A stretch of DNA of 64,000 nt, taken from sequence record NC_018835.1, one strand, 5' to 3'. The DNA is from Escherichia phage NJ01. Below, in pieces: positions 45,168 through 56,573 of this stretch. The notes under the pieces are model-generated. The model was not told where the DNA came from. It made no database searches and worked only from the letters and a program-made list of their open reading frames with translations. The translations under genes were made by a program, and so were the position numbers. The stretch's first letter is position 1, and every line of letters begins with the position of its first letter.

Positions 45168-47012
45168 TTAGTGTGTATGCATCCAGTTAAGTCCAATCTG
45201 ACAATCAGATGCCAGAGGACATTCCATGTTCAAATACTCACCAGCTTTCTTAACGCAAAGCTCAGTGTGCTCTTTGAGTTTCTGTACATCATTACGATTC
45301 ACTGAGAACTGGCCCTCATCGTGCATGTCAATTACCTTCGCACAGCGAACTCCATCTTTCTCAATCCACTTGTTAAGGAACATCATAGCATATTTCATAA
45401 CAACAGCACCAGCGCATTGCAGGAGTGTGTTAAGAGCTTTATGAACCATAACCTTACCAGTGGCATCTCGTCTCATTGTAATCTTACGACCATCAACACC
45501 AATCAAGTATCCTTGAGCAGCTTTCTCTGTCATACGATCAATGAGGATTGCAATACATGGGTTCTCTGCCAAGAATCGTGCTCGCATCACTGAACCTTCG
45601 TCAGCCCCACCACCTACAATTGAACCGAGCTTAGCGTCACCAGCACCATAGTTGAATGCGTAGATAAACGTCTTAGCGTTGTCACGAGTAGGAAGACCAG
45701 CAAGTTTCTGGTTGTGGGAGTGAATATCACCTTCAAGGAGGATATCACGATACATAATAGCAGAAGCTAAACCACGCTCTGCCAGAGCTTTCTTAGCTGG
45801 ATTGTTCTCTTCAATTGCTTCAGCAAGCATATCCCTACACTCTTTAATGAGGTAGTGTGCAAGCATACGCAATTCTAATCCAGAACCATCATACCCTAAG
45901 AATACTTCTTTACCAGCGGGTATGTAATATTTGTAAGCACCTACAGGTTTATCTTTCTTCCCCGGCTTACCTTTCTCGTAAATTACGTTAGTACCTTTTC
46001 GTATATAACAACCATCAGGAACAACGTTAGTAATAACGAAAGGACGAGAGTGATCACCATCTGAGTTACAGTCAGACTCAAACAAACCGCGACACTCATG
46101 ACCAAACAAACCACGGGAGGGAATATTAACCACGATACGATGTTTGAATCGAAAAGTCGGCGTAGCACAGCTGTTAGCTTCTGCCGAAAGTTTACCATCT
46201 TCGCGTTCCTTTGCTATGAGTCCACTGATAAGACCTAGCCTGTGAGCCGCTACAACGCGTCTCTTAAGCAAACTTCCGACACTCCCTAGCTCACCCCCTA
46301 ACCCTTCTTCAAGAGTCTCCTCGAGGTTTGTAGGAGCTGTAGGCCACTTGTTTGAGGTAGCTAGTGCTATCTTAATCTCATCAAAAGTGATAGGTCTACG
46401 TCGGTTAGGATTTAAACCTAAACCAAATACATAAGCCTTCATGTAGTTCTTAGTTTTAAACCTAAAATGCTTCTCTAAGAACTTCCTAATATCAGCGTCA
46501 ACCATCTCGGCTGTCTGCTTCTGTTTAGCATTACCTCTCATCCAAGCTGAATACCACGCTTGGTATGTTCCATACTTTCGCATATCTTTCTTGATTTCAA
46601 AAGTATTCCAAGGTTTCTTTGATACGTTAAACTCTGGAGGAAGAAAACCCTCATCCATAAGGGCTTCTTTAACTCGTGCATCTTTCGATGGGTCAAAGTC
46701 CACGTATTCAACACAGGTGAATGCTCCACCAATGTCTTCTCTCTTAAGACCAACTCTATCACAATAGGCTTGAGGCCACTTCTGTAAAGCTCCAGACTTC
46801 TTAAATGGCTTCATATAAGTAGAGCCATCTAATCTCATCTTAGGTAAGAGAGGAATCAGTTCTTTGTCAATATTAACAATAATCTCTTTAAGGAGGTGAA
46901 CATACCACCGAGCATTTCTTCGGTTGAAACTCACTCCGTGCTTCGCTTGCTTAGAGATTATATCAGCGACAGTCATCTCTGTCAAAAATGGGAGAGCGTC
47001 CGGGTTGCTCAC
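45168..47012 (-). CDS. DNA polymerase, family A (T7 gp5-like), polymerase domain only
   Basis: Motif A YDGSGLELRMLAHY, motif B RDNAKTFIYAFNYGAG, motif C VIDMHDEGQF; no exonuclease motifs in this ORF. Confidence 0.85.
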   Translation of the reverse strand: MSNPDALPFLTEMTVADIISKQAKHGVSFNRRNARWYVHLLKEIIVNIDKELIPLLPKMRLDGSTYMKPFKKSGALQKWPQAYCDRVGLKREDIGGAFTCVEYVDFDPSKDARVKEALMDEGFLPPEFNVSKKPWNTFEIKKDMRKYGTYQAWYSAWMRGNAKQKQTAEMVDADIRKFLEKHFRFKTKNYMKAYVFGLGLNPNRRRPITFDEIKIALATSNKWPTAPTNLEETLEEGLGGELGSVGSLLKRRVVAAHRLGLISGLIAKEREDGKLSAEANSCATPTFRFKHRIVVNIPSRGLFGHECRGLFESDCNSDGDHSRPFVITNVVPDGCYIRKGTNVIYEKGKPGKKDKPVGAYKYYIPAGKEVFLGYDGSGLELRMLAHYLIKECRDMLAEAIEENNPAKKALAERGLASAIMYRDILLEGDIHSHNQKLAGLPTRDNAKTFIYAFNYGAGDAKLGSIVGGGADEGSVMRARFLAENPCIAILIDRMTEKAAQGYLIGVDGRKITMRRDATGKVMVHKALNTLLQCAGAVVMKYAMMFLNKWIEKDGVRCAKVIDMHDEGQFSVNRNDVQKLKEHTELCVKKAGEYLNMECPLASDCQIGLNWMHTH

Positions 47013-47614: not shown

Positions 47615-47890
47615 TTAACCTTTTGGGAATGGCATTAAAGATTCCATAGCAGATTTAATTTCGCTATTGATTCGAGCATCTCGATAAGAGATAAACTTAC
47701 CTTTGCTATCTCGTAACATCACATGGGTTCTAGCTGTTACGTGGGGAAGTAATGTAATACTAGTTGGGATAGTGTCAATCCCTACAGAAAATTTGTCAAT
47801 AGTCTTGCTTTCACTTAACAGATAAGACCAAGTTTGCTTCGGATGGTTAGGGTATGTGTCTCGAATTTGAACCATAGCTAACTTATTCAT
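47615..47890 (-). CDS. small protein, member of tandem paralog pair
   Basis: Shares GKFISY...E...PFPKG with next gene. Confidence 0.45.
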   Translation of the reverse strand: MNKLAMVQIRDTYPNHPKQTWSYLLSESKTIDKFSVGIDTIPTSITLLPHVTARTHVMLRDSKGKFISYRDARINSEIKSAMESLMPFPKG

Positions 47891-47891
47891 A

Positions 47892-48143
47892 TTAAACTCC
47901 TTTAGGGAATGGGATGAGGTTTTCTACTGCAACACGGAACTCTTTCTCTACGTTTTTATTCTTATAAGAAATGAATTTACCATCAGCCCCACGGAGGATT
48001 ACGTTAGTACGAGCTGTTTTTGGGTTATGACCAATCTGGTTTGCAATAATATTAGCAATGCCGTGGTTATTGGTAAATTTCCATTTAACCATACGATTGT
48101 TAGACATTACATCAATGATATTTACAGATTTTACAATAGACAT
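47892..48143 (-). CDS. small protein, member of tandem paralog pair
   Basis: LRGADGKFISYKNKNVEKEFRVAVENLIPFPKGV vs LRDSKGKFISYRDARINSEIKSAMESLMPFPKG. Confidence 0.45.
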   Translation of the reverse strand: MSIVKSVNIIDVMSNNRMVKWKFTNNHGIANIIANQIGHNPKTARTNVILRGADGKFISYKNKNVEKEFRVAVENLIPFPKGV

Positions 48144-48585: not shown

Positions 48586-49323
48586 TTAAGCTTTCTTTTC
48601 CATTGCTTTAACAATCGCCTTACAGAAACCAGAACGAACAATGTCATCTGATTCCCCATCTACTATCTCAGCGAACTCATACAGATCATGTTCATCAATA
48701 AAGTTAGTAGCCCAAGTAAGACCACTCTCACGACCACGCATATCATGCTGGTTAGTATCACCCATGCAGAACAGCTGAGAGGTCTCTCCCAATCGAGTCA
48801 TGATTGAGAAGGCTTCATCTTTAGTGGTGTTCTGGAACTCATCTACGATAACAATAGCATCATTGAAAGAACGACCACGGAGATACTCCAGAGGTACGAA
48901 CTCAATATTACTGTTACCGAGCTGGCATTCATAGAACCCTTTACCATATCGCTGAGTAATAACATCAATGATAGGCATCAAATATGGTTCAAACTTCTCA
49001 CGCATCCCTCCCGGAAGCAACCCAAGAGAATTACCCATGCCGACCGAAGGGCGACTCAAGATAATCTTCTGAATCTTACCACTCTTCAGTGCATCGATAA
49101 CCGTGGAAGTGATTACAAAGGTCTTACCACAGCCCGCAGGAGCGTCTGTGAACACAACTTGTTTAGTCTTGATAGCATTGAGCAGTTCAGACTGGAACTG
49201 GTTCTGAGGGACTACAGGCTTTGCTAAAACCACCTCTTCAAACTCGCGCTTACCCTTACGAGTGACAAGTGCTTCCCGACGAAGGTCTTTCCGTGATTCT
49301 TTCCGTGATTGACGACGACTCAT
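48586..49323 (-). CDS. phoH: PhoH-like ATPase
   Basis: Walker A TDAPAGCGKTFV, Walker B-like IVIVDEFQN. Confidence 0.75.
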   Translation of the reverse strand: MSRRQSRKESRKDLRREALVTRKGKREFEEVVLAKPVVPQNQFQSELLNAIKTKQVVFTDAPAGCGKTFVITSTVIDALKSGKIQKIILSRPSVGMGNSLGLLPGGMREKFEPYLMPIIDVITQRYGKGFYECQLGNSNIEFVPLEYLRGRSFNDAIVIVDEFQNTTKDEAFSIMTRLGETSQLFCMGDTNQHDMRGRESGLTWATNFIDEHDLYEFAEIVDGESDDIVRSGFCKAIVKAMEKKA

Positions 49324-49532
49324 TTACGCTCTCCAATTTCTTCGTAATGACATTCAGTAGTTAAACAATCTTTACAGATTGCTGTATAAACCCTGACGTT
49401 AGTAAATCGTTTGTTCTTCCCTTTGGTTGGAGAGCCTTTGGCAAGCTCTCTGATAACCTTGTTACTTAAATGAAGGTTTGTCCCTTCACATCTAGAGCAC
49501 TTCACCACAATGTCCATTCGGTAAGAGACCAC
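49320..49532 (-). CDS. zinc-ribbon protein (70 aa)
   Basis: CSRCEG...CKDCLTTEC paired CxxC. Confidence 0.4.
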   Translation of the reverse strand: MVSYRMDIVVKCSRCEGTNLHLSNKVIRELAKGSPTKGKNKRFTNVRVYTAICKDCLTTECHYEEIGERK

Positions 49533-49702
49533 AGAGAGTCACCTATGTGGGCATTGTCATTCCTGATGAGGTCTTTGATTTTATCAACATCAGTTAAGTG
49601 AGTCACATTCAAAATATCCTCAACATCTGGGGCATATTTAAATATGGCAACAATACTGTTGTGATCTTCAGCATATCTTTCTAGAACATAAACTACGCTC
49701 AT
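49502..49702 (-). CDS. hypothetical protein
   Basis: ORF track. Confidence 0.35.
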   Translation of the reverse strand: MSVVYVLERYAEDHNSIVAIFKYAPDVEDILNVTHLTDVDKIKDLIRNDNAHIGDSLWSLTEWTLW

Positions 49703-50022
49703 GCGAAGTTAACCTCTTTATGAAGTCTGTAAACAGCTGTCGCCATACAAGCAACAGCTTCGTTATGTGGGAGATGCATCCCTGTAGAACCATCCCAATC
49801 TTTGAACTCATTGTCAAAGACTCCGGTAGGCTCTGGATACAAGGCTTGCAACTCAACCAAATCGTTAGCAACTTGTTGCCATTTATCATCAGACCAGATA
49901 GGGTCATCCAACCAGTAATACAAATAGGAATGGATGATCAATTGCCTTCTGTGCCGATTAATTACTTCAGCGGGACTTATCTCACTTCCATTTGAAGTCC
50001 TAAATGTATTACTGTCAATCAT
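49699..50022 (-). CDS. small protein resembling NAD-dependent DNA ligase N-terminal (Ia) domain
   Basis: HSYLYYWLDDPIWSDDKWQQVANDLVELQALYPE vs LigA [29 protein letters not shown]. Confidence 0.35.
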   Translation of the reverse strand: MIDSNTFRTSNGSEISPAEVINRHRRQLIIHSYLYYWLDDPIWSDDKWQQVANDLVELQALYPEPTGVFDNEFKDWDGSTGMHLPHNEAVACMATAVYRLHKEVNFA

Positions 50023-50267
50023 TTCACAACCTTAAATTTGAATGTTGTTGGGTGATAATAATGCAACCTGTTAATGGTGTGCTTTGTTTCAAGATATATC
50101 CTACAAGAGTGACACATCACATGATTCAGACCAGTTACAGGATTAGGTTTAAAGTTGGCGATAGGCTTCTCTTTCTTACAGAAGCTACAGACTTTCTTTT
50201 CCATCTTTTCTCCAGTGGTCAACGAACTGCTGAAACACTTTACGGTCAAATGTGAAATTACGAGCAA
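50019..50267 (-). CDS. small zinc-finger protein (start uncertain)
   Basis: CSFCKK...CHSC motif; probable start at internal MEKKV. Confidence 0.35.
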   Translation of the reverse strand: MLVISHLTVKCFSSSLTTGEKMEKKVCSFCKKEKPIANFKPNPVTGLNHVMCHSCRIYLETKHTINRLHYYHPTTFKFKVVK

Positions 50268-51236: not shown

Positions 51237-51446
51237 TTAATATTCTTTTACATAATAAACCACTAAGGTTCCCATCTCTGACAATGTTGATTTATGTAAG
51301 CTTACTTTACTATAAATCTTTGGGGCCATCTTAAGAGCCTTCTTAAAACGGCGAGCATCTTTACGAGTAGCAAAGTGCTCTGTAACAGGTATAGCCGGGT
51401 CTTGGTAGAGGTAATATACCACCGTCCAATATTTTTTCATAATCAA
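51237..51446 (-). CDS. small protein, member of four-copy paralog family
   Basis: Shares TRKDARRFKK core and C-terminal Tyr with 53300..53915 trio. Confidence 0.45.
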   Translation of the reverse strand: MIMKKYWTVVYYLYQDPAIPVTEHFATRKDARRFKKALKMAPKIYSKVSLHKSTLSEMGTLVVYYVKEY

Positions 51447-51905: not shown

Positions 51906-52091
51906 TTACAGCATAGCAAGAATGATAATAAGAGGTAATGTTATAGCGAAATTAATAAGAACAGCGCTGCCTAGCTTGATAGCTTTAACATCCTCTTCTG
52001 ATGGGTTTTCTTTAATTGCTAAATTTCGAGCTTTATATATAACAGTACCAATTATTAACGACCACACGGCCCACACAATCAGTGAAATCAT
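51906..52091 (-). CDS. small two-TM membrane protein
   Basis: MISLIVWAVWSLIIGTVIY...INFAITLPLIIILAML. Confidence 0.45.
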   Translation of the reverse strand: MISLIVWAVWSLIIGTVIYKARNLAIKENPSEEDVKAIKLGSAVLINFAITLPLIIILAML

Positions 52092-52100
52092 ATCAAACCC

Positions 52101-52280
52101 TTATGCAGTCAGGAGGTGAAGCAGGAATGGGATAACAACAGCTACGACAACCATGATGGTTGATGCTGTTTGAATCTCACCTTTCTTGTCAGGGGTTTCT
52201 TCAATAAGCTTGCCAGAAGCCCAATAGATACCACCACCAATAAAGACAGCCCAAATACCCCATACGATTGCTGATAACAT
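52101..52280 (-). CDS. small two-TM membrane protein, paralog of 51906..52091
   Basis: Translation MLSAIVWGIWAVFIGGGIYWASGKLIEETPDKKGEIQTASTIMVVVAVVIPFLLHLLTA; track ORF 52142..52396 is another frame. Confidence 0.45.
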   Translation of the reverse strand: MLSAIVWGIWAVFIGGGIYWASGKLIEETPDKKGEIQTASTIMVVVAVVIPFLLHLLTA

Positions 52281-52341: not shown

Positions 52342-52953
52342 TTAGTAAGACACATCGCCACTTGAGTGGGACATGTTGCTCTTGACGAAGTAGCAATACT
52401 TGCCAAGACCTTCATTAATTTCTTGAAGCATACTCTGATCAACTGGATAAGTGGCTAAATCACCATCAAACTCATCCATCTTCTCAATAATACACATCAA
52501 GGTCATGCACATATCAGAGAGCATACCGTCCATATCTAGGTCAGCATTACCCTCTGAGAACCAAGCATGGGAGAGATAATTGGCTGCTGTGGCGTCCACT
52601 TTAACACAGTGGTAACGCATACGTTCAGCAATACGATCTCCTACTTGTCGTGCGTAATCTTCCAGCTCATCAAACATACCATGAACACCCTGAAATCCTG
52701 CACCAGAGACGTTCCAATGGTAGTTTTTAGCTTTGATATGCAAGAGTTCCATGTTAGCTTGTAAGCAGCTCAGGATGTGTTCTAGGCTGTTTCCACTAAT
52801 CATACCCTGCATTGTTTCAAGGCGAGAGATTGAAAGCTCGGACCGATCTAACATATTGTATTCGACACGACCAATCTCGGGTAAGTCAAAGACATTCTTA
52901 TGCATTTGGGTTTTCTCCATCAAGTTCAACTGAGTTAGCAACATTACGTGCAA
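52342..52953 (-). CDS. Dps / ferritin-like protein (start uncertain)
   Basis: HIKAKNYHWNVSGAGFQGVHGMFDELEDYARQVGDRIAERM matches Dps ferroxidase helix pair. Confidence 0.6.
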   Translation of the reverse strand: MHVMLLTQLNLMEKTQMHKNVFDLPEIGRVEYNMLDRSELSISRLETMQGMISGNSLEHILSCLQANMELLHIKAKNYHWNVSGAGFQGVHGMFDELEDYARQVGDRIAERMRYHCVKVDATAANYLSHAWFSEGNADLDMDGMLSDMCMTLMCIIEKMDEFDGDLATYPVDQSMLQEINEGLGKYCYFVKSNMSHSSGDVSY

Positions 52954-53299: not shown

Positions 53300-53509
53300 T
53301 CAGTAATAAATTACTTTAGACATAAAAGAACCCGAGTTAGGGTCTTCGTACCAGCGATGTATATCAGCGCTTTTTACTATTGTGCCCAGAGTCTTCAACT
53401 GTTTCTTAGCAATACGAGCCTCTTTGCGAGTGTCAAACAATTTGATGCTATCTTTTCTCGTGTGTTGATCAAGATCCCAAACAACACGAATCGCCCACAT
53501 CTTTTTCAT
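53300..53509 (-). CDS. small protein, paralog family member
   Basis: W.IRV...TRKEARIAKKQLK...Y-COOH pattern. Confidence 0.5.
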   Translation of the reverse strand: MKKMWAIRVVWDLDQHTRKDSIKLFDTRKEARIAKKQLKTLGTIVKSADIHRWYEDPNSGSFMSKVIYY

Positions 53510-53718
53510 TAGTAATGTACCTTTCCGCTGATATAAACACGACCAGAAGAATACTCCTTGGCCTTATGGATACTGATACTATTGACCACGTCACCAGTAA
53601 GCATAGTCTTTTTAAAATCTCGAGCCTGTTGACGAGTAGGAAGTGCAGTCATAGTCATACCACCTGATGCCCACTTAATCTTTGCTAACCAAAACTGTCT
53701 CATAGTGATTGGTCTCAT
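53509..53718 (-). CDS. small protein, paralog family member
   Basis: TRQQARDFKK core, C-terminal HY; start/stop overlap with neighbours. Confidence 0.5.
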   Translation of the reverse strand: MRPITMRQFWLAKIKWASGGMTMTALPTRQQARDFKKTMLTGDVVNSISIHKAKEYSSGRVYISGKVHY

Positions 53719-53915
53719 TAATAATAAACCTTGCTGTTGGCAAAAAGAGCACCTTCGTTATTCACAATAGCTTTTCCTATTGTAACCTTATTGAGTCTAA
53801 AAGTAGACTTGTATTGGTTTTTGACCCTACGGGCGTGTTCTCGAGTATTAACAAAATCTACAGCTACTAACTCTCCAGTCGTGTTATCATGTACACGAAC
53901 AATCCACTTTTTCAT
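53718..53915 (-). CDS. small protein, paralog family member
   Basis: TREHARRVKNQYK core, C-terminal YY. Confidence 0.5.
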   Translation of the reverse strand: MKKWIVRVHDNTTGELVAVDFVNTREHARRVKNQYKSTFRLNKVTIGKAIVNNEGALFANSKVYY

Positions 53916-54661: not shown

Positions 54662-56017
54662 TTAGTTATTTGTTTCCATGTCAAAAGAGATTCCACGACC
54701 CGCTTCATCGGCAAACCGAACTGTACGGGTTTGAGGCTGCAATACTTCAGGGTTATCAGCAACAAAGCGATCAGCGAGACTGCGGCTGACGGTCTCAGCT
54801 AATTCACCATGAGAAGGGATATTAAGATCGGCGAGATTATCAACCACATCTTGGGCCACGTCTTCATCAGTCCATACAGCCCTAACAGGTGCGTTGAAAC
54901 TCTGACCAGAGAACTGGTGACGGCTAACAGTCAAACCATTTGATTGACCATTAGAACGTCTAGACAACCACTGCTCAAATGAATCGCCAGTAACACCAAG
55001 AGCTTCTTCAAAAGATGTTCTACGAGTAGAGCTTAGATTTCGTGCTTCGTTTGCTCGACGTCTTGCAGGGGCTACAAACACCCCTTCAACTGCATTGTGC
55101 CGATTAGGTTCATCTTCTCGACCAAGGAGATCTCCTCCTGTATTAGTTGTTAAGTTTGTTAACCCTTCAGACCAATACGCATGAATTCGGCTAGAGCCAT
55201 GAAGACTTGACATTAACTGAATCTCTTCGTAAGGTATACCAAAGAATAGACTCATGTCTCGGTCAACACAATACGAGGGACTTGTCGTATCCTCAACATA
55301 AGTAACCTGACCCCGTTCATCGACCAGATGATTAATCGGTTGAGGTGTAGGGAGGTATCGAGAGTGGGCCATATATTGATATGCAACAGATGGAGCTGAG
55401 AATCTTAACACTTGTGAATTAGGCCACTTTTTGTGAACGTATCTGATTTCACGACTAGAAACAACCACAGGGCAAGGAGCGGTCATAGCTAAATATCCAT
55501 GAGGAGTCATGAATAGGTTGTCAAGAGTCATCGCACCACGGCACATCATAGGAAAATTATCCAATACCTCTTCAATAGAAGTAGGATAATTAAACATGAA
55601 TTGAATGCGGGTTCCATTCCACTGAAACTCAATAATATCAGTGAATGTTAATTGAGAACCCCCAGCATATGATTCGTTTGTAGCTTCAGCAAGAAGGGAT
55701 GCATACTCGATATCTTGTGATTCAAGCCACTCTTTCACATTGCTTTCAATCTCTCGTCCAAGAGCTTGCCAATGATCAACTGTAGTGAAAGTATTTTGAG
55801 TCCCTGGCGTCTGTCCTCTGACAACGAAGATATCAATATCGTGAGGTGCTATGTTATTAAGCACGGCATCACGAACAGCCCCACCAGTAATGATAGGGCA
55901 AATGCCGTCTGGAATCAAGTTGTTGTTAATCAACTGTTCAATGAAGTGACGACCAACAGTGATATCAGGTTGTTGAGCAACCTTATCTTCAATTTGGTTA
56001 ATCGGGATAACAATCAT
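54662..56017 (-). CDS. Pol-beta-superfamily nucleotidyltransferase with CCA-adding-enzyme-like head domain
   Basis: ITGGAVRDAVL...PHDIDIF (GGxVRD ... DxD) near N-terminus after start at 56017 (MIVIPINQ); long C-terminal region without recognised motifs. Confidence 0.5.
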   Translation of the reverse strand: MIVIPINQIEDKVAQQPDITVGRHFIEQLINNNLIPDGICPIITGGAVRDAVLNNIAPHDIDIFVVRGQTPGTQNTFTTVDHWQALGREIESNVKEWLESQDIEYASLLAEATNESYAGGSQLTFTDIIEFQWNGTRIQFMFNYPTSIEEVLDNFPMMCRGAMTLDNLFMTPHGYLAMTAPCPVVVSSREIRYVHKKWPNSQVLRFSAPSVAYQYMAHSRYLPTPQPINHLVDERGQVTYVEDTTSPSYCVDRDMSLFFGIPYEEIQLMSSLHGSSRIHAYWSEGLTNLTTNTGGDLLGREDEPNRHNAVEGVFVAPARRRANEARNLSSTRRTSFEEALGVTGDSFEQWLSRRSNGQSNGLTVSRHQFSGQSFNAPVRAVWTDEDVAQDVVDNLADLNIPSHGELAETVSRSLADRFVADNPEVLQPQTRTVRFADEAGRGISFDMETNN

Positions 56018-56018
56018 T

Positions 56019-56573
56019 TTACATTTTCCAATATAATGAAGGTGGGTCGTAAGGGTCAAATCCCGTGAGTTCACACAAGTATTTATAAACCTTAACGGTT
56101 AAGTTAACGTCCTGTTCACAGTAAGTAAACATATCTTCAGTGAAAGCATCCCATGCTTCCTCTTGCTCACCGTAGTCTCCTTTAAGTTCCTCTAAGAACT
56201 CACCCCATTGCTTCAAACCATGACCTCTTGGGCCATGTCTAGGGTCACCTTTCGGATACTCAGGACTGTCACCAATACGGTCAGGTTTAAGATATCGACT
56301 AAGACACAAGGTGTCGAAGACGTTAAAACGATAGTCGATCAGATTGGGATACATCTTCTTCAGAGCACAAAGGTCGAAGTCAATAATATTATGACCTACG
56401 AGCACATCAGCTTCTGTAAGTTTACGAATCCCATCTTCAATTTGGTGAGGCCGATAGCCCCACCTTTCACCAGTTTCAACATCGAAGATGTAAATACACC
56501 ACACTTTAGTTATGTCATCGTACAGTGCATTACTCTCGATATCAAATGCAAACACTTTCTTTTTCTTTACCAC
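56019..56573 (-). CDS. 3'-5' proofreading exonuclease, T7 gp5 N-terminal-domain-like, as a separate gene
   Basis: Exo I FDIESNAL, Exo II HNIIDFD, Exo III YCEQDV; collinear with T7 DNAP N-terminus ([15 protein letters not shown]). Confidence 0.8.

Follow-up and report, generated by a model that had tools for sequence, protein, structure and literature searches.

The window analyzed here is a 64,000-nucleotide stretch of the genome of Escherichia phage NJ01 (NC_018835.1), a phiEco32-like podovirus (Kuravirus, Gordonclarkvirinae), and all coordinates refer to positions in this window. On its minus strand, an ATG-to-stop open reading frame (ORF) at 49699..50022, stop codon included, encodes a stand-alone protein of 107 amino acids (aa) that matches the Pfam family PF22745, "Nlig-Ia: DNA ligase-like, N-terminal NAD+-binding domain" (NAD+, nicotinamide adenine dinucleotide). 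Reading of the sequence placed a Shine-Dalgarno element, AAGG, 7 nucleotides 5' of the ATG (50030..50033, minus strand). Start and stop codons overlap in an ATGA, formed by the ATG at 50022 and the TGA of the preceding gene, and this suggests that the two genes are translationally coupled. The choice of this start codon is supported by homologues of 62 to 79% identity, in which the N-terminal 30 residues are kept.

The protein is almost certainly a solo Nlig-Ia protein, that is, a domain Ia of the NAD+-dependent DNA ligase LigA encoded on its own. The family domain is helical and ~90 residues long. The match to PF22745 (E = 2.7e-35; 121.3 bits for a cutoff of 27) aligns residues 16-103 of the protein with profile positions 1-91/92, and PHROG 6466 is matched with an E value of 4.9e-42. 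When a family profile of 55 homologues was compared with Escherichia coli LigA using hhalign, residues 15-66 of the solo protein aligned with LigA residues 2-53 (probability 96%; E = 4.8e-9). An AlphaFold2 model built from the family alignment (predicted local distance difference test score of 90; predicted template modeling score of 0.80) contains helices at residues 17-38, 45-61, 70-73, and 88-106. The best 25 Foldseek matches of this model in the PDB are all NAD+-dependent ligases, and the hairpin superposes on the LigA structures with a root mean square deviation of 0.7 to 1.0 Å over ~48 columns. This two-helix hairpin spans residues 15-66 (49825..49980, minus strand) and is homologous to domain Ia of LigA. 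With single sequences the similarity to LigA is weak, with E values of 0.003 to 0.15 (0.05 to 0.14 for the LigA chains in the PDB), and covers the helix hairpin only; the NCBIfam equivalogs for LigA are not reached (NF005932, 15.9 bits versus a cutoff of 369; TIGR00575, 13.7 versus 444).

Nlig-Ia is the sole significant Pfam match in the 107-aa protein, which ends with a stop codon that is followed at once by the next gene. The alignment with LigA stops at LigA residue 53, and both the nucleotidyltransferase domain, with the lysine that becomes adenylylated, and the OB domain are absent. The resemblance to domain Ia, which an initial annotation of this DNA had proposed from the segment HSYLYYWLDDPIWSDDKWQQVANDLVELQALYPE (residues 31-64), is thus borne out by the Pfam profile, the profile-profile alignment, the model, and the fold search, and so is its statement that no ligase catalytic domain is attached. 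That annotation had also named a similarity confined to a short helical stretch as grounds for doubt. To LigA the similarity is indeed confined in this way, the hairpin being the whole of domain Ia; to the solo family it is not, as the profile spans the whole protein. A sub-threshold match to Imm41 (21 bits; cutoff, 26.9) was put down to chance, given the alpha+beta structure of that immunity protein. Searches of PADLOC-DB 2.0 with the window protein, a tailed homologue, and the SAR324 form of the family (both described below) gave no match at E values of ≤0.1.

In comparison with domain Ia of LigA (E. coli residues 1 to ~69; PDB entries 5TT5, 1TAE, and 1V9P), the solo protein has the same hairpin, with Tyr22 and Asp32 identical, and the signature H.YLY(H/Y)..D.P.I.D..(Y/W) is common to both. 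It differs in having 14 additional residues at the N terminus and ~40 at the C terminus and in the replacements His23 to Tyr, Tyr35 to Trp, and Asp36 to Gln. Unlike LigA, it has no covalently attached nucleotidyltransferase, OB, Zn, HhH, or BRCT domains and cannot catalyze ligation. Many GenBank records label the protein a ligase, but it is not one.

Domain Ia of LigA holds the nicotinamide mononucleotide (NMN) half of NAD+ and orients NMN as the leaving group during self-adenylylation. Sriskanda and Shuman reportedly found in 2002 that residues Y22, H23, D32, Y35, and D36 of domain Ia of E. coli LigA are essential for the reaction with NAD+; specific roles for His23, Asp32, and Asp36 are said to have been described by the same authors and by Gajiwala and Pinko in 2004. 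The positions corresponding to these five residues fall in two conserved motifs of the window protein. In the HSYLYY motif (residues 31-36; 49915..49932, minus strand), invariant in 55 of 55 homologues, Y35 corresponds to LigA Tyr22 and Y36 to LigA His23. In the D-D-K-W-Q motif (residues 45-49; 49876..49890, minus strand), D45 corresponds to Asp32, W48 to Tyr35, and Q49 to Asp36, and these three residues are invariant. Two of the five positions are thus identical (Y35 and D45), one retains an aromatic residue (W48 for Tyr35), and two are changed (His23 to Y36 and Asp36 to Q49). In LigA the nicotinamide ring is sandwiched by a pair of tyrosines (PMC7470946), and, judging from the alignment, this aromatic sandwich is preserved in the solo protein as Y35/W48. 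We consider it probable that the protein binds NAD+ or NMN through Y35, W48, and D45, as these residues predict. The replacements at Y36 and Q49 are family-wide, so the exact ligand is not fixed by the conserved residues.

The last ~40 residues have no counterpart in LigA, the alignment ending at residue 66 of the solo protein. They comprise an F.DWDGSTGMHLP block (residues 73-85; 49768..49806, minus strand), which is specific to the solo family and holds eight invariant positions, and the C-terminal helix with the protein end (residues 88-107; 49702..49761, minus strand), also family specific and modelled as a helix over residues 88-106. Presumably, these C-terminal residues replace the contribution that the nucleotidyltransferase domain makes in LigA.

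These features invite the reading that the Ia fold was kept while its ligand changed, so that the solo protein would bind another nicotinamide or adenine nucleotide, or would act as a pure adaptor for a protein partner, with Y36, Q49, and the DWDGSTGMHLP block setting the specificity. The changes of His23 to Tyr and of Asp36 to Gln are fixed in the clade from proteobacterial phages, the 40 C-terminal residues with their eight invariant positions lack a LigA counterpart, and the members from actinophages (Y-D or F-D at positions 48-49) and from SAR324 bacteria (Y-D) differ at exactly these positions. The replacements are, however, chemically conservative for the same contacts, since a Tyr hydroxyl could stand in for His, an amide for a carboxylate, and Trp for Tyr in stacking. 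Moreover, the actinophage and SAR324 members bridge, in their residues, the LigA-like and the Y36/Q49 types of pocket, and intermediate clades that carry the LigA-like Y-D point to continuity of the ligand. We rate a retuned ligand or a pure adaptor role as quite unlikely.

Across the 55-homologue alignment, in which identity falls to ~40%, 18 columns are invariant: H31-S-Y-L-Y-Y36, D45, W48, Q49, L55, F73, W76, G78, T80, G81, H83, L84, and P85. All 18 are present in the window protein, and their invariance at this divergence indicates strong purifying selection. The gene is also intact elsewhere: Escherichia phage 172-1, which is 98.6% identical to the window over the 6 kb compared, has an orthologue with 107 of 107 codons and 100% identity, and full-length orthologues are found in ~90 Escherichia and Shigella kuraviruses. 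The view that the gene is a decayed, functionless remnant of a full-length phage ligase gene could appeal to the routine annotation as "DNA ligase" and to the truncated, 70-aa version that even RefSeq holds. It is effectively refuted by the 18 invariant positions, and it sits badly with the Shine-Dalgarno sequence and translational coupling, with the conserved, family-specific C-terminal extension, with the lack of flanking ligase debris, and with the breadth of the family, whose 586 cluster representatives (E ≤ 1e-10) are nearly all similarly short. We regard decay as extremely improbable.

The family itself is known, and Pfam has an entry for it. Iyer, Burroughs, Anantharaman, and Aravind (2022, Viruses 14:1977; PMC9503650) described solo Nlig-Ia in 81 phages, 80 of which lack a ligase catalytic module, and gave ECBP2_0056 as an example. 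The ECBP2 orthologue is 76.7% identical to the window protein over 96% of its length, with the same solo architecture in a ligase-less genome and no structural difference, and the window gene is therefore a member of a group already exemplified in that work. According to these authors, the key residues for binding the ligand are conserved, and the solo form is confined to viruses and without precedent in cellular genomes; they proposed that it acts as an NAD+ sensor or as a shield against host NADase effectors (PMC9503650). Judged by the aligned residues, the statement on conservation is partly accurate, being true for three of the five positions. What is new with respect to the 2022 description is the partial nature of the pocket conservation, the C-terminal block, the clamp-type tails, and the chromosomal clade in SAR324.

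A word-indexed search retrieved 139 homologues, and an exhaustive profile search retrieved the 586 representatives mentioned above (clustered at 50% identity), nearly all of 75 to 135 aa with PF22745 as the sole domain. Of the 251 cultured-phage records that encode the domain, many give its product as "DNA ligase" or "NAD-dependent DNA ligase", and a genomics paper on Kuravirus lists it as the phage ligase (PMC9965538). This label is wrong, both in that paper and in the GenBank records. Other labels found across the ~250 phage records are hypothetical protein and "baseplate hub assembly protein". In the RefSeq record of phage 172-1 (NC_028903, 52589-52801), the identical gene is called as its last 70 codons only, from an internal TTG start, and is named "DNA ligase". 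Among the longer homologues, P0219 (321 aa, metagenomic) carries tandem Nlig-Ia copies in one polypeptide, counted as two stretches by Pfam and as three by the family profile, and P0181 and P0206 have Nlig-Ia fused to a common C-terminal domain of ~200 aa without a Pfam match. The extra regions of ten longer homologues (167 to 321 aa) matched no Pfam family.

The lack of a catalytic module extends from the protein to the phage. A tblastn search with E. coli LigA against the window and the complete 172-1 genome returned the Ia stretch only, with no ligase debris flanking it; the ~13 kb of the genome that lie outside the window were covered through 172-1 alone. Pfam scans of 20 ORFs (the polymerase, exonucleases, primase-helicase, a 470-aa ORF, and unassigned ORFs of ~200 to 470 aa) detected no NAD-dependent or ATP-dependent ligase family, and the whole-genome RefSeq annotation of 172-1 lists no other ligase; for ATP-dependent ligases the absence is based on Pfam and annotation, no dedicated tblastn having been made. 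Outside the window, ORF107 (323 aa) and ORF108 (397 aa) gave no match at all, and ORF105 is likewise without a Pfam family (sizes of 205 to 397 aa). A split ligase, with Ia as one subunit and a separate catalytic subunit, was rejected, as these searches of the window and of the remaining 172-1 sequence found no catalytic module. The 470-aa "nucleotidyltransferase" (54662-56074), encoded between a dCTP deaminase and a 3'-5' exonuclease subunit, has a sub-threshold match to the PolyA_pol head domain (E = 0.003); it was rejected as a ligase partner, this weak match being of the Pol-beta type and not to a ligase fold. In Enterococcus phage iF6, the 284-aa ORF that overlaps the Ia gene also contains no ligase domain.

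The phage does encode a family-A polymerase, separate 3'-5' and 5'-3' exonucleases (flap exonuclease), and a primase-helicase. By ordinary replication logic, it must borrow the host LigA to join its lagging-strand fragments. The initial annotation had further suggested an NAD-binding module that could act in trans. In a phage without a ligase module, any partner for such action would be the host LigA or something else; the tails of relatives (described below) and the recurring position of the gene among replication genes lend it circumstantial support.

The Nlig-Ia gene is one cistron in a dense, translationally coupled operon on the minus strand. Upstream lies an 82-aa ORF with a CxxC...CxxC pattern (50019..50267, minus strand), which is zinc-ribbon-like by its sequence and gave only sub-threshold matches to zinc-finger families of Pfam. 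Downstream, the ATG of a 66-aa ORF (49502..49702, minus strand) overlaps the Nlig-Ia stop codon (ATGA), and the operon continues into a PhoH-like gene (48586..49323, minus strand). On a wider scale, the Nlig-Ia gene lies between PolA (45168..47012) and the genes for ThyX, a thioredoxin-like protein, and dCTP deaminase. Arthrobacter phage Pumpkins has the order primase/helicase, Pol I, one small gene, and Ia, and Rhodococcus phage RGL3 has the order ribonucleotide reductase, ThyX, Pol I, ..., Ia, and deaminase. Three phage groups that are unrelated to one another thus have the Nlig-Ia gene in a module of replication and nucleotide metabolism.

The genes next to it differ between phages and are unrelated, including genes for DUF7169, HD-domain, and DUF6283 proteins. 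The DUF7169 gene lies directly downstream of Ia in phage Pumpkins (L008:5270-5575). A DUF6283 gene is found one or two genes upstream of a tailed Ia gene in three metagenomic phage contigs (L012:8990-9463, L011:9484-9840, and L005:3768-4211). The four small ORFs that flank the window Ia gene, and the fused extensions of homologues, had no match at the loci of other lineages.

In about one-sixth of the relatives, a flexible linker bears a terminal L-F peptide resembling those by which proteins dock on the beta sliding clamp. The consensus of beta-clamp-binding peptides is Q-L-x-L-F, typically at the extreme C terminus, and it has been acquired convergently by proteins of mobile elements (PMC4549789). 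In E. coli the beta clamp contacts DNA ligase directly and speeds ligation in Okazaki-fragment maturation, an effect not seen in Mycobacterium tuberculosis (PMC9690074). The word "clamp" has no occurrence in the 2022 family paper (PMC9503650). In a survey of 271 family proteins, with 663 ordinary phage ORFs from the same loci as the control, an exact C-terminal Q-x-x-[LMIV]-F was found in 25 (~9%), with QMSLF, QLSLF, QASLF, QMGLF, QMALF, and QGSLF among the forms (P0018, P0021, P0026, P0027, P0029, P0031, P0035, P0040, P0045, P0065, P0067, P0071-73, P0089, P0096, P0112, P0117, P0121, P0123, P0153, P0167, P0230, P0238, and P0257; loci, L016:5992-6333 and L017:5980-6426). QxxLF ends occur in 3 of the 663 control ORFs (Fisher p = 2e-11, on counts that shared ancestry inflates), and these three are expected to be Ia genes themselves. 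Another 13 family proteins end in a basic linker followed by LF, 11 start with M(x)xLF, and 4 have a motif at both ends.

The linkers that precede the tail motifs are Pro/Ala-rich or otherwise of low complexity, disordered, and 10 to 90 residues long, and several of the proteins also have an internal PALFDAP. Motif-bearing proteins stand at several separate places on the tree of the core domain and their linkers are unrelated, which suggests that the motif was repeatedly gained or long retained. In their ends (QMSLF, QLSLF, or QASLF), P0018, P0065, P0071, and P0072 are like known clamp-binding proteins such as insertion sequence transposases and the toxin SocB. The tailed members come from contigs of ~47 to 93 kb with 63 to 64% GC and from genomes of Janthinobacterium and Massilia. 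In Janthinobacterium sp. CG3 the tailed Ia gene lies directly upstream of ParA and ParB (L016:6210-8482), with two TnpB genes of the IS605 type upstream of it. The ParA-ParB pair directly after the Ia gene suggests an episome or a phage-plasmid that relies on host replication.

The family also reaches into cells. In four genomes of SAR324/Deltaproteobacteria there is a gene for a divergent solo Nlig-Ia protein of ~119 aa (PF22745, 52.6 bits; L024:6013-6372, L022:5088-5444, L023:1182-1532, and L025:5983-6321). Three of these genomes show overlapping parts of one gene order, namely, Lon, XseA (the large subunit of exonuclease VII), HTS-like, Nlig-Ia, a DnaJ-domain gene, RF-1, Rho, and FolD, with its upstream portion in L022 and its downstream portion in L023. 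This context is chromosomal and of a housekeeping kind, and the clade contradicts the published view of the solo form as confined to viruses and without cellular precedent (PMC9503650).

These observations bear on the proposal of Iyer et al., in which the solo domain is a free NAD+ sensor that reports host NADase defences (TIR, SIR2, and others) or an NAD+ shield, in either case independent of ligase. The proposal has the standing of a published one (PMC9503650), and it accords with the absence of ligase modules from these phages, with the conservation of D45 and the two aromatic residues in the NMN pocket, and with the wide use of NAD+ depletion as an antiphage strategy. Against it, the protein is a single domain of 107 aa without an output module, and no conserved partner gene was found; as for a shield, it is implausible that a phage protein could stoichiometrically cover NAD+ at millimolar concentrations. 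The gene stands among genes of replication and nucleotide metabolism and not among NAD-salvage or antidefense genes, the clamp-type tails of relatives point to action on DNA, and the SAR324 clade is hard to square with an antidefense role. Overall, we see a ligase-independent sensor or shield as possible but rather improbable. It is compatible with action at replication sites together with LigA, and a clamp-tethered sensor is possible.

A second proposal turns the same surface against the host. The solo Ia could dock on the nucleotidyltransferase domain of LigA or, through the tails, on the clamp, and thereby block adenylylation, so that the host's replication and repair would be crippled. Replication proteins of the host are frequent targets of phages, the surface of the Ia fold is conserved, and the tails could occupy the clamp cleft as the toxin SocB does (PMC9690074). 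Such an inhibitor would, however, be self-defeating for a phage that has its own primase/helicase, polymerase, and flap exonuclease and no ligase, because the joining of its own lagging-strand fragments depends on the host LigA. A purely steric inhibitor would also have no need of conserved residues in a ligand pocket, and the family is also present in elements resembling episomes and in a bacterial chromosome, which does not suit a takeover function. We therefore think a host-takeover inhibitor unlikely.

The reading that we favor, tentatively and short of calling it probable, is that the solo protein is an NAD+/NMN-binding module that works at replication sites alongside the host LigA. In a first step, NAD+ or NMN would be held by the Y35/W48 pair and D45, and the pocket would be completed or retuned by Y36, Q49, and the DWDGSTGMHLP block. 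In a second step, the module would act at sites of DNA synthesis together with the borrowed LigA, for example, by keeping the ligase charged when NAD+ is scarce or by otherwise modulating its adenylylation. The solo domain would then not be a free-floating sensor. Action at these sites is proposed because phages that differ greatly have the gene in an operon for replication and nucleotide metabolism and because relatives carry L-F tails.

Several points weigh against this reading. The host LigA already has its own Ia, which leaves a second one acting in trans without an evident purpose. The replacements of His23 by Tyr and of Asp36 by Gln mean that the ligand might be other than NAD+. No neighbor gene common to the lineages was found. 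The window protein ends in ...HKEVNFA and, differing in this from the clamp-binding proteins, has no QxxLF anywhere, so that the clamp tether is extended to it by family analogy only; docking on the clamp is in turn predicted from the pattern of the tails, with the inflation of their counts noted above. The kuraviruses have their own family-A polymerase and no clamp, and a clamp may be missing at their fork. The missing tail of the window protein fits a phage of this kind. In addition, a literature search found no experimental work on any solo Nlig-Ia protein.

Extended to the whole family, replication-site action would make solo Ia proteins NAD+ modules of the replisome that act in trans on the adenylylation of host LigA during Okazaki-fragment joining. 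They would be tethered by a QxxLF clamp peptide where host machinery is used and by other means where the element brings its own polymerase, and they would have a cellular role in SAR324. In this general form we put the idea forward as a conceivable scheme, less than likely as it stands.

Further features of the window lie outside this question. Four small minus-strand ORFs of 65 to 69 aa (53300-53915 and 51237-51446) look like paralogues, with a basic ...AR..KK.. center; the C terminus is (I/V)(Y/H)Y in three and KEY in one, and three of the ORFs follow one another in direct tandem, stop codons overlapping start codons. Two more tandem pairs of paralogues occur at 47615-48143 and 51906-52280. 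One consists of a 91-aa and an 83-aa ORF whose C termini both contain ...GKFISY... and PFPKG (ends PFPKG versus PFPKGV), and the other of two hydrophobic proteins of ~60 aa with similar N termini, MISLIVWAVW and MLSAIVWGIW. A 203-aa "DNA binding protein" (52342-52953) has a ferritin-like (Dps-type) match to PF00210 (E = 2.9e-7), which is unexpected in the early/middle region of a podovirus.

The main practical value of these results is the correction of a label, since ~250 cultured-phage records hold the domain, many under the name "DNA ligase", and it figures as a phage ligase in at least one genus-level paper. For the biology of these phages, the cofactor-binding domain of a ligase is found alone in viruses that borrow the NAD+-dependent ligase of their host, while NAD+ depletion is a major antiphage weapon. 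The clamp-type tails offer a concrete and cheap handle to tell a free NAD+ sensor from a cofactor module of the replication fork. If true, action in trans on LigA would be a previously unrecognized way in which mobile elements without a ligase could ensure, or restrain, the sealing of nicks, such as when NAD+ is depleted, and a cellular role in SAR324 would, if true, make the solo module something other than an invention of viruses only.

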